Positions 2-1,875 of a DNA stretch of 64,000 nucleotides are shown here, piece after piece; the first letter of the stretch is position 1; each line of letters starts with the position of its first letter. A model generated the notes under the pieces. The model was given only the letters and a program-made list of their open reading frames with translations, ran no database searches and was not told the DNA's origin. The translations under genes were made by a program, and so were the position numbers. Location of the stretch: assembly GCA_030429725.1 (NCBI GenBank), contig JAUIEX010000001.1:3684-67683 (forward strand), written 5' to 3'. The DNA comes from Alphaproteobacteria bacterium. Its GTDB lineage: Bacteria > Pseudomonadota > Alphaproteobacteria > Rickettsiales > UBA8987.

Positions 2-1048
2 TTTGAAGATATCTGCGAAATTATGAAGCAATATGATGTGGCCTTCAGCTTAGGCGATGGGCTGCGCCCCGGCTCCATTGCCGATGCCAATGATGAAGCC
101 CAGTTTGCGGAGCTGAAAACGCTGGGCGAACTCACCCAGGTGGCGTGGCAGCATGATGTGCAGGTGATGATCGAAGGCCCAGGCCACGTGCCGATGCACC
201 TGATTAAAGAGAATATGGATAAGCAGCTGCGTGAGTGTTACGAAGCGCCCTTCTATACGCTGGGGCCGCTCACCACCGATATTGCGCCCGGTTATGACCA
301 CATCACCAGCGCCATTGGCGCGGCGCAGATTGGTTGGTATGGCACGGCGATGCTATGTTACGTCACGCCGAAGGAGCATCTTGGCCTGCCCAATCGTGAT
401 GATGTGCGCGAGGGCGTGATTACCTATAAGCTGGCGGCGCACGCGGCCGATCTGGCCAAGGGGCACCCGGGCGCGCAGATGCGCGATGATGCACTTTCCA
501 AAGCGCGGTTTGAGTTCCGCTGGCGCGACCAGTTCAACCTCAGCTTAGACCCTGAAAAGGCGATGGAATATCACGACGAAACCCTGCCGGCCGAAGGCGC
601 GAAAGTGGCGCATTTCTGCAGTATGTGCGGGCCCAAATTCTGCTCCATGAAAATCTCTGAAGATGTGCGCCAATATGCCAGGGAGCAGGAAGCTTCTAAC
701 TCTCCCTTCACGGGGGAGTCTGAAAGCGCCTCATTCCCCCCTGGTGGGGGAATCGGAATCTCAGATTCCGATGGGGGGGATAGTTCAGAAACACCCCCAC
801 CAGCATCCCTGCGTGATGCTGACTCCCCCATCAAGGGGGAGTCATTTTCAAACGCAAACCCCCAAGTCAAAAATCCCGATATGGGAGGCCAGCAGGCCAA
901 CCGTGCCCACAGCGCGCGGCAGCGCCATCCCATGGGGAGTTCAGAAGAACTCACCGGGGATGAAAAACAAAAAGGCATGGCCGAAATGAGCGAAAAGTTC
1001 AAAGAATTGGGCAGCGAAATCTACATCGACCAGAAGAAGGTGGGTTAA
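2..1048 (+). CDS. thiC: Phosphomethylpyrimidine synthase ThiC, 5'-truncated by the window edge. The C-terminal tail carries a ~90-aa low-complexity in-frame insertion.
   Basis: The frame stays open back to nt 2 ([24 protein letters not shown]...). ThiC-typical sequence throughout, including the C-terminal [12 protein letters not shown] Fe-S motif. Stop TAA at 1046-1048. Confidence 0.93.
692..966. repeat. Intragenic palindromic (hairpin-dense) insertion read in frame within thiC. Boundaries are approximate.
   Basis: Stem-loops at 699-719, 733-753, 754-770, 821-843 (9-bp perfect GACTCCCCC/GGGGGAGTC) and 937-952. The recurring peptide is (N/D)SPxxGES. The segment shares a 22/27-nt block with the insertion at 52527-52655. 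Confidence 0.6.
1018..1048. repeat. Direct repeat copy 1: the thiC 3' terminus still attached to thiC.
   Basis: AATCTACATCGACCAGAAGAAGGTGGG (1018-1044) is identical to 1845-1871. Both copies encode IYIDQKKVG followed by a stop. Confidence 0.9.
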
Positions 1049-1054
1049 TTTTTA

Positions 1055-1747
1055 ATGATTAAATTCGCAACAGATAATATCAAAGCTGCCATAATAGGAT
1101 CATTGCTAACATTCGTTCTAGGAATAGTATGGTACGCCATCGAAAATTATTTAGATGAAAGGCCAGAGTTAGAAGCAACTATAATACATAATGTTTTTCG
1201 TGTTCCACAAGAGAATCTTAAAGATAACATAGAAGATTTAATAAAATCTAATTCAGAGAACGGAAAAAAATCTAATGAATTGACTGAAACCACACAAAAT
1301 ATAGCTCTAAGCAAATATAATTTGTTAGAAATGGATATATTTCATTATAACTCATACTTACAAATTGAGCTTTTTAATCCAACCAATAAAAAAGTTCTTA
1401 ATCCTACCATCAAACTTTTTGATACATTAGGTTTCCAGAAAACTAATTCATATTTTAGGTATGGCAAAATTAGTGTTGTTGGCAACGAATATGTCATTCC
1501 TGAATTGATGCCAAATGAGCGAATTGAAGTAGAGGTTTGGACAACAAAATCATTTTACAAATACCCAGAACACTGGGAAATTCTTATCTCACACAATGAT
1601 GGCATTGCCTCAATAAGTCATAAGAGTCCAGTTATAGAAACTAACTATATAAAAATATTCATGTTAGTTGCTATGGTATCGATGGCGTTAATACCATTAA
1701 AACTTGTTATGGATGTTTTCTATTTCTCAAAAAGAAAGATTAAATAA
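1055..1747 (+). CDS. Hypothetical membrane protein with N- and C-terminal TM helices, on AT-rich cassette DNA.
   Basis: 230-aa ORF starting 6 nt after the thiC stop. Hand counts give roughly 30-35% G+C against ~60% in thiC. Hydrophobic segments at both ends. No motif recognised. Confidence 0.6.
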   Translation: MIKFATDNIKAAIIGSLLTFVLGIVWYAIENYLDERPELEATIIHNVFRVPQENLKDNIEDLIKSNSENGKKSNELTETTQNIALSKYNLLEMDIFHYNSYLQIELFNPTNKKVLNPTIKLFDTLGFQKTNSYFRYGKISVVGNEYVIPELMPNERIEVEVWTTKSFYKYPEHWEILISHNDGIASISHKSPVIETNYIKIFMLVAMVSMALIPLKLVMDVFYFSKRKIK

Positions 1748-1844
1748 ATCTACCCGTATATGAACAAAGAGAGTGCTAACAGCGACATCAACAAGCTGGC
1801 AGAGCTGCTGAAGAACATCACCGAAATAAACCGTAACACTAAGT

Positions 1845-1875
1845 AATCTACATCGACCAGAAGAAGGTGGGGTGA
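1845..1875. repeat. Direct repeat copy 2: an orphan duplicate of the thiC 3' terminus downstream of the cassette.
   Basis: 27-nt perfect match to 1018-1044. It continues GGG TGA where copy 1 has GGT TAA, so the encoded peptide end is the same with a different stop. Confidence 0.9.

Follow-up and report, generated by a model that had tools for sequence, protein, structure and literature searches.

The 64,000-nt stretch analysed here (contig JAUIEX010000001.1, positions 3,684 to 67,683 of the forward strand; hereafter the window) belongs to an uncultured alphaproteobacterium and begins within thiC. Directly behind the stop codon of this gene lies an AT-rich segment that carries a single gene, ORF230, and is followed by a second copy of the thiC 3' end. 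We designate such a segment, enclosed between two copies of the end of a host gene, as an islet. The features of the thiC locus are the following (ORF, open reading frame; attL and attR, left and right attachment sites).

23..1048, + strand: 3' two-thirds of thiC, the host target gene (Pfam ThiC_Rad_SAM, E=1e-101); the gene runs off the window start.
1018..1049, + strand: proximal, attL-like repeat, comprising the last 9 thiC codons and ending GGT TAA T; the present working end of thiC.
1050..1844, + strand (800 nt if counted from 1045): AT-rich islet with 31.1% G+C, without a recombinase or another long ORF.
1055..1747, + strand: ORF230, the sole cargo gene, encoding an orphan membrane protein of 230 aa that has a helix at either terminus and is beta-rich in between.
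1748..1844, + strand: islet trailer of 97 nt with 43% G+C, holding a 28-codon ORF (1760-1846) of doubtful meaning.
1845..1876, + strand: distal, attR-like repeat, an orphan thiC 3' end that ends GGG TGA T; putatively the displaced original end.

The repeat AATCTACATCGACCAGAAGAAGGTGGG is exact over 27 nt (1018-1044 and 1845-1871), lies where the initial annotation of this sequence had placed it, and has no further copy elsewhere in the 64-kb window even if up to 3 mismatches are allowed (0 matches in 100 dinucleotide shuffles). Ungapped extension lengthens it to 32 nt (1018-1049 versus 1845-1876) with 2 mismatches. As initially read, both copies encode IYIDQKKVG and a stop codon in the thiC frame, the proximal one ending with GGT TAA and the distal one with GGG TGA. 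Both differences (at 1045 and 1047) are silent, one of them affecting a glycine codon (GGT/GGG) and the other the stop codon (TAA/TGA). They are confined to the last 5 of the 32 positions, that is, to the insert-side edge, for which our own arithmetic gives a chance of ~0.02 if differences fall at random. The homology ends 1 nt past the stop codon. Since an in-frame stop codon is present just upstream of the distal copy (1840-1842), this copy is part of no gene. Two outliers stand out among the short-range exact direct repeats of the 64 kb, namely this 27-nt repeat and one of 63 nt described below; the next-longest measures 16 nt. The left junction of the occupied site reads GGCAGCGA + repeat + TTAATTTTTAATG. 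The corresponding empty site would read GGCAGCGA + repeat + GTGATAAAACTTC, and the junction of a circle or of a tandem arrangement would read AACACTAAGT + repeat + TTAATTTTTAATG.

The exact copies are separated by 800 nt (1045-1844) rather than by 796 bp, as had been counted initially; the low G+C content noticed for this DNA is real (31.1%, compared with 56.7% for thiC and 51.8% for the window). The G+C content at third codon positions (GC3) is 0.26 for ORF230, 0.65 for thiC and 0.57-0.65 for the neighbouring host genes. Base composition, GC3 and the orphan status of ORF230 support the view that the insert is foreign DNA. The arrangement is not an artefact of one assembly. Indeed, in an independent assembly, the Logan contig L001 (run ERR3428548) agrees with the window over 4302 nt with 0 mismatches and leads without branching from thiC through the insert to wzy. 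As the thiC repeat (27 nt) is shorter than the k-mer of the assembler (31), this contig genuinely confirms the integrated arrangement. The non-coding parts of the insert, of 10 nt and 97 nt, are unfolded and contain neither recognisable content nor element remnants.

ORF230 starts 6 nt past the thiC stop codon on the same strand, and the ORF list agrees with the initial annotation in this respect. It is the only ORF of at least 60 aa inside the insert and matches no family in Pfam, NCBIfam, PADLOC or PHROGs, in line with the absence of a recombinase reported for this DNA. The protein had been described as possessing a transmembrane helix at each end and no recognisable domain, and structure prediction and profile searches had been suggested for it. 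The AlphaFold2 model, computed from the single sequence, indeed contains predicted helices at both ends (residues 2-34 and 196-228); its middle part is not confidently modelled, and the fold as a whole is of low confidence (mean pLDDT 44.7). No relatives were found among ~15 billion proteins. A word-indexed search of 5.8 billion clusters returned only the protein itself, and an exhaustive HMMER search of 1.84 billion representatives added a single weak match in several stretches, which is probably compositional. As an open frame of 230 codons at 30% G+C would arise by chance with a probability of ~1e-8 (our arithmetic, from the stop-codon frequency), ORF230 appears to be, or to have been until recently, a real gene. 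There is no terminator-like site between thiC and ORF230, and promoter-like matches around ORF230 are no more frequent than in shuffled sequences. Together with the short distance to the thiC stop codon, this suggests that ORF230 is read through from thiC, with which it is probably co-transcribed. The sequence AAGGTGG at the end of the repeat, 11 nt 5' of the ORF230 ATG, resembles a ribosome-binding site. The thiC leader, the expected place of a thiamine pyrophosphate riboswitch, falls outside the window.

The initial annotation proposed to look for other short duplications of gene 3' ends, and one of them, the 63-nt repeat mentioned above, is indeed present in the same window, at thiL.

42028-42534: nusB, upstream of thiL.
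41038..42012, - strand: thiL, the host gene; its product (P0123) contains Pfam PF00586 and PF02769, and its matches are named thiamine-monophosphate kinase.
41038..41100, - strand: proximal 63-nt repeat, comprising the last 20 thiL codons and TAA; it contains a perfect 10-bp hairpin (fold z = -4.9).
40113..41037, - strand: second islet, 925 nt, with 42.7% G+C versus 57.3% in thiL.
40115..40981, - strand: cargo of this islet, a 288-aa prepilin-type protein with an N-terminal methylation motif (PF07963, E=3e-6; TIGR02532).
40050..40112, - strand: distal 63-nt repeat, an orphan thiL 3' end located 28 nt from the convergent rpmF (39761-40021).

Both copies of the thiL repeat are identical in 63 of 63 positions and end exactly at the stop codon. 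The cargo ORF has the same orientation as thiL and stops 2 nt before the distal repeat. The thiC and thiL loci thus have their architecture in common, with the end of the host gene followed by one foreign gene and then by an orphan end of the host gene, and the thiL/pilin islet (40050-41100) is best explained as a second product of the process that gave rise to the thiC islet. Small plasmids of Frigidibacter, Acuticoccus and Singulisphaera carry relatives of the thiL cargo that are ~30% identical to it and occur as solitary genes, and the prepilin family to which it belongs is present in multiple copies in metagenome-assembled genomes (MAGs) of uncultured 'Rickettsiales', Holosporales and other Alphaproteobacteria. 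In the fetched loci described below (L009-L168), the members of this family display the motifs Y..A..F..Y..LPGD and IDxKMDDGxP and often form tandem arrays of 2-4 genes. Their hosts are uncultured 'Rickettsiales', UBA-type alphaproteobacteria and planctomycetes, and the family also occurs as a lone plasmid gene.

Through this pilin-like family, ~160 loci were fetched, and a census of direct repeats (24-400 nt, at least 85% identity, spacing of 0.3-4 kb) was made by self-BLAST. Most of the repeats represent tandem paralogues. Pilin-like genes are not, as a rule, repeat-flanked; only few of the ~160 loci are. The layout of the thiC and thiL islets nevertheless recurs in unrelated alphaproteobacterial MAGs. 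A 143-nt repeat (92% identical) in L073 encloses one pilin-like gene and no other content. It ends with a T-arm-like sequence and ACCA; as neither ARAGORN nor Rfam confirmed it as the 3' end of a tmRNA or tRNA, it can be called tRNA-like only. In L036 (2646-3644), a Rickettsiales MAG, ~130 nt of the ppx 3' end (92% identical) bracket a higB-higA toxin-antitoxin pair. The reading frame of the distal ppx copy ends in a palindromic unit, GTCATTCCGCTGAAGAGCGGAATCC, and a second pair of repeats at this locus (3651-3791 and 4987-5137) brackets a pilin-like gene. In L047, the last 16 codons and the stop codon of an lpdA-like gene are repeated around an AT-rich insert of 339 nt, and the copies differ in four codons, all of them silently (GCA/GCG, GTC/GTT, TCG/TCA, TAG/TGA). 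The insert contains a 46-codon ORF at the same position as the 28-codon ORF of the thiC islet; the similarity of the two ('DINKL', pairwise E = 0.005) was discarded as noise, with E = 29 against all fetched DNA. In L068, the last 17 codons and the stop codon of thiG (5662-6522) recur 1.84 kb away, past two pilin-like genes. Finally, L168 contains a perfect 75-nt repeat (5512-5586 and 7072-7146) consisting of the last 9 nt of an ORF, called RecA-like here from our reading of its N-terminal translation without a family scan, and its terminator hairpin; between the copies lies one 439-aa ORF on the opposite strand with no assigned function. No other locus resembles a true long duplication of an insertion target so cleanly.

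All thiC, thiL and thiG genes found in the window and in L009-L087 (~630 kb) bear a repeat-bracketed insertion at the 3' end, although this excess of thiamine genes is partly confounded, as the window had been flagged for its thiC event and L068 had been fetched through its pilin-like gene. In the remaining fetched loci, no thiC, thiL or thiG was found near pilin-like genes.

For the four protein genes whose repeat copies differ, the differing codons are distributed as follows.

thiC: 2 silent, 0 non-silent.
lpdA (L047): 4 silent, including TAG/TGA, 0 non-silent.
thiG (L068): 2 silent, 3 non-silent.
ppx (L036): 5 silent, 5 non-silent, the latter mostly conservative.

Pooled, 13 of the 21 differing codons are silent (P = 4e-4 versus a neutral expectation of 25%), frameshifts are absent, and the stop codon is kept at the homologous position. 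Furthermore, the edge of the homology coincides with the stop codon of the host gene (+/-1 nt) in four of the six protein-gene cases (thiC, thiL, thiG and lpdA). The predominance of silent differences implies that the second copies derive from 3' ends that evolved under coding selection, as is the case for icd and icdC flanking the e14 prophage. Judged from the sequences, the divergence of the copies resembles that of coding sequence and does not look like that of a decaying target-site duplication.

By its sequences, the organism is a deep-branching alphaproteobacterium with no close relative in the collections searched. The best match of its ThiL among 5.8 billion clusters is 45-49% identical; the top matches of ThiC are from Bacillaceae and provide no taxonomic help. 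The genome of the window was not among the matches of one genome-collection scan, and the peptide of the ThiC tail, searched as a degenerate DNA pattern, had 0 matches in JGI metagenomes. Look-ups of exact proteins (ORF230, Wzy, L32, ThiL, NusB and the pilin-like protein) revealed no empty site; all they returned were three short Logan contigs, which stem from one run and are identical to the window. In a lineage without close relatives, the orphan status of ORF230 is somewhat less surprising.

We lean, by a modest degree, towards the following explanation: the segment 1045-1844 is a horizontally acquired one-gene islet without a recombinase, residing in an attachment site that consists of the last nine thiC codons, and it entered by a Campbell-type crossover through a 3' end borne by the element itself. 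The incoming DNA would have been small and circular, or linear with inward-pointing ends, and would have carried its own thiC 3' end directly before ORF230; this copy would have served as the working gene end in earlier hosts. One reciprocal crossover within the shared stretch would then have placed the cargo behind thiC, so that the GGT TAA copy brought by the element would now terminate ThiC and the copy at 1845-1876 (GGG TGA) would be the displaced original end. The responsible enzyme would be encoded outside the islet. It could be an integrase that a related element encodes at another place in the genome, as with cis-mobilizable elements (CIMEs), or host RecA acting on 27-63 nt of identity. 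Ends-in (Campbell) recombination by RecA on stretches of this length would serve several unrelated targets without a dedicated enzyme, but it does not account for the initial joining of a gene end to a cargo gene. The repeat, the foreign composition, the silent differences, the recurrence and the lack of a recombinase in the 64 kb are observations, whereas the circular intermediate, the enzyme, the direction in which the event proceeded and the co-transcription with thiC are inferred. The initial annotation had likewise proposed attL and attR sites of an integration that regenerates the thiC 3' end. The silent differences, the stop-codon edge and the recurrence at other genes strengthen this proposal; an empty site, a circular junction and a recombinase were not found in the sequences searched.

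Several observations weigh against this explanation. No integrase, transposase or relaxase domain is encoded in the insert or among the ~50 ORFs scanned with Pfam across the 64 kb (a few ORFs of at least 150 aa are unscanned), and protein clusters, the genome-collection scan and JGI metagenomes yielded neither an empty site nor a circular junction nor a cognate element. The thiL copies, being identical, contribute no silent-difference signal. Apart from the heptamer CCAGAAG, which we judge to be due to chance, the repeats of thiC and thiL have no sequence in common, and one site-specific integrase can thus not serve both sites. With 0.8-0.93 kb and one intact ORF nearly filling each of them, the islets are smaller and tidier than the cargo-bearing CIMEs described, and random deletion of a larger island is not expected to leave such tidy one-ORF islets twice. 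At thiL, the Logan contigs break off after exactly 30 nt (k-1) of the 63-nt repeat, whichever side they enter it from; with k=31, an integrated islet and a 988-bp circle plus an empty site are indistinguishable there. As for the other genomes, the thiG repeat of L068 belongs to a larger duplicated unit of 1.9 kb, and the repeat of L168 runs 66 nt past the stop codon through the terminator, which is more like a true target duplication.

Downstream of the distal thiC copy, another segment of probably accessory DNA is present.

1877..2666, + strand: probable accessory islet with ORF65 (1967-2164) and a DUF2335 membrane protein (2139-2591); 40-48% G+C.

The DUF2335 protein (2139-2591, + strand; Pfam E=5e-11) has a match to phrog_3996 (E=8e-30), a phage family of 'moron' membrane proteins, and a weak one to a SLATT-domain model (E = 6e-4). 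Its relatives, 29-39% identical, are found on IMG/VR viral contigs. Probably, the segment 1877-2666 occupied the thiC site earlier than the islet and has since decayed. Neither the thiC tail nor the thiL tail has additional degenerate copies downstream, and no tandem att array was seen.

Among the systems described so far, solo CIMEs and insertions with long target duplication are the closest to the islets, which represent a known kind of event. CIMEs of the streptococcal families of ICEs (integrative and conjugative elements) and IMEs (integrative and mobilizable elements) are att-flanked, free of recombination genes and located at the 3' ends of housekeeping genes; they are common, and those bearing cargo measure 1.2-13 kb (PMC7563491). 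The islets share two defining properties with them, att-like repeats and the lack of recombination genes. As in CIMEs, the direct repeats are copies of a housekeeping gene's 3' end (fda, rpsI, rpmG and rplL in CIMEs; thiC and thiL here), and the cargo of both islets comes without integrase, excisionase, relaxase or transfer genes. Moreover, CIMEs are often stacked at hot spots with the most decayed one farthest from the target gene, which is the position of the DUF2335 segment here. However, CIMEs are recognised beside a cognate ICE or IME, whereas the ORFs scanned across the 64 kb revealed none, and the islets differ from them in having 0.8-0.93 kb with one tight ORF each, in using two att sequences within 40 kb and in residing in an uncultured alphaproteobacterium.

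The e14 prophage in icd of E. coli provides a precedent for the silent differences: it supplies a working 3' end to the gene, and the displaced icdC fragment differs from it mostly synonymously (PMC13626634). In both e14 and the thiC islet, a replacement 3' end has apparently been brought in and the original end orphaned at the far junction, with mainly synonymous differences between the two. In contrast to the islets, e14 is 15 kb long, possesses its own integrase and excision functions, relies on much longer homology and has been shown experimentally to excise. Phage 21 likewise occupies the icd 3' end of E. coli. Recombinase-free cassettes of single whole genes between conserved housekeeping genes are reportedly known from Neisseria as the minimal mobile elements of Saunders and Snyder (2002). 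These elements reportedly have no flanking duplication and would move by transformation, with a double crossover in the conserved sequence on either side. Two other AT-rich ORFs of the window that lack repeats, one between atpA and atpG and one behind a glycine-transporter-like gene, are similar to them in this respect (see below).

Insertion with long target duplication (Nobusato et al. 2000; Furuta et al. 2010, PMC2853133) is a phenomenon with an unexplained mechanism, which the 2010 survey did not settle. It resembles the present case in the lack of a mobility gene, in unique repeats of tens of bp over the stop codon and in the lower G+C content of the insert. It differs in that it was defined on restriction-modification genes and on empty sites in sister genomes, with repeats of >30 bp that reach intergenic DNA, whereas the cargo here is a membrane orphan or a pilin-like gene, the repeats lie within coding sequence and end at the stop codon, and the thiC copies differ silently. 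Measured by the limits of the survey (repeat >30 bp, insert <20 kb, no other mobile element), the thiL islet with its 63 nt falls inside and the thiC islet is borderline (27 exact of 32 nt); neither carries restriction-modification genes, which the survey also required.

Such a duplication is the main rival of an element-borne gene end and would be a possible, albeit rather unlikely, origin of the islets. Foreign DNA would have been joined into a staggered break of 27-63 nt, fill-in would have duplicated the target, and only those duplications that include the stop codon would have survived. It is documented that inserts without mobility genes lie between unique direct repeats of 30 to ~400 bp; the repeats often extend over a stop or start codon, and the inserts often have a low G+C content (PMC2853133). 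The variable lengths of the repeats, their lack of a common motif and the lack of a recombinase among the scanned ORFs also fit, and this rival suits the identical thiL copies and L168, where the perfect repeat passes the recA stop codon into the terminator, better than it suits thiC. However, fill-in of a staggered break predicts neither silent differences nor an edge at the stop codon, which favours an element-borne copy of the gene end: neutral decay does not predict 13 silent codons among 21, a random stagger does not predict an end at the stop codon in thiC, thiL, thiG and lpdA alike, and both thiC differences cluster at the insert-side edge. We know of no enzyme for this route. The islets could alternatively be the leftover of a larger island or prophage whose own integrase used the thiC 3' end and which lost everything but one cargo gene and the att sites by internal deletion, i.e., a decayed and immobile CIME. 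Decayed elements of exactly this kind are what the term CIME denotes, and they are very common (PMC7563491), the att-like repeat shows the e14-like signature of silent differences, and a family of phage 'morons', DUF2335, adjoins. Nevertheless, there are no pseudogene fragments, ORF230 begins 6 nt past attL and the thiL cargo stops 2 nt short of attR, and L073 displays an equally tight fit; two independent deletions would hardly each leave one intact, tight and co-oriented ORF, and we regard this origin as unlikely.

An artefact of assembly or binning, in which foreign AT-rich DNA or a small circle was threaded in via a shared k-mer, is very improbable. The breaks of the Logan contigs at k-1 would fit a 988-bp circle plus an empty site equally well, but for thiL only; thiC is spanned by a contig without mismatch or branch, and DNA of an unrelated organism would not bear 27-63 nt identical to the gene ends of the host. 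The thiC islet is neither an integron cassette nor a transposon insertion, both of which we consider next to impossible. A promoterless, lone orphan ORF of ~0.8 kb in the orientation of the upstream gene is indeed similar in size and content to a gene cassette. However, an attC-like fold is absent from 1740-1885 on either strand when compared with shuffles (z = +0.63 and +1.11), the thiC repeat region being unstructured, no GTTRRRY cores were seen by eye at the thiC junctions (no pattern scan was run), and no IntI is encoded by the ORFs scanned. Terminal inverted repeats at the ends of the insert were found neither by inspection nor among the 25 longest repeat pairs, a transposase ORF is missing, and repeats of 27-63 nt far exceed the usual duplications made by DDE transposases; the initial annotation had already judged 27-30 bp too long for a transposase. 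It is conceivable, but improbable, that the islets constitute a distinct class: promoterless single-gene cassettes of less than 1 kb in uncultured Rickettsiales-like alphaproteobacteria, with the last 9-20 host codons as the only cis feature, which would insert at the stop codon by RecA-driven ends-in or Campbell recombination after DNA uptake, without a dedicated recombinase, and prefer thiamine genes, amounting to integron-like sampling without an integron.

The rest of the window consists of ordinary housekeeping genes (e.g., those for DAHP synthase, lipA, purH, trkA, greA, htrA, hflKC, atpHAG and ruvC, as well as murA, guaA, glpX, murB, xseA, typA and gltX). No tRNAs or Rfam families were found in it. 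The AT-rich ORF in the ATP synthase operon (30498-31001, - strand; 167 aa, 37.5% G+C, GC3 0.31, no family) separates atpA (31040-32578) from atpG (29599-30495), which are normally contiguous, and ends 2 nt before the atpG start. The other one (13968-14489, - strand) encodes a multi-pass membrane protein of 173 aa (34.7% G+C, no family), starts 1 nt past the stop codon of a gene of the glycine-transporter family (14491-15135) and lies 48 nt before a cysD-like gene of the phosphoadenosine phosphosulfate (PAPS) reductase family. Flanking repeats were not found around either of them.

ThiC itself contains an in-frame low-complexity insertion of ~95 aa (686-970 of the window) between the C-terminal Cys motif and the conserved tail. 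The insertion consists partly of palindromic units of 22-25 nt (696-720, 730-754, 819-843), with the arms 699-720 and 821-842 being 86% complementary, and its motif has one other occurrence in the window. It resembles in-frame palindromic elements such as the RPEs (Rickettsia palindromic elements). The ThiC core (23-700 of the window) is 88-91% identical to proteins of Bacillaceae (Robertmurraya, Lysinibacillus, Cytobacillus), and no alphaproteobacterial protein ranked higher; this may reflect a transfer of thiC between phyla or an artefact of the word-based selection of candidates. Furthermore, an ORF with a match to RTX calcium-binding repeats (35224-37323, + strand, 699 aa) contains three tandem 114-nt repeats (35324-35665) that are 68-74% identical, and a Sel1-repeat protein of 723 aa is encoded at 8398-10569. 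RTX-type and Sel1-repeat proteins are often found in host-associated bacteria.

What raises these islets above the routine is the occurrence of two events within 40 kb, the signature of silent differences and the coincidence of thiamine genes. If thiC, thiL and thiG are upheld as targets in complete genomes, they may indicate a site preference or a regulatory one. The comparison of silent differences is a cheap test that separates a gene end borne by an element from a duplicated target, and it bears on the origin of inserts that have long flanking repeats and no mobility genes. Standard finders of islands and prophages rely on integrases and would miss such islets. If our explanation is true, a poorly sampled and probably host-associated alphaproteobacterium gains orphan genes one at a time, behind intact housekeeping genes and with no mobility gene left behind.

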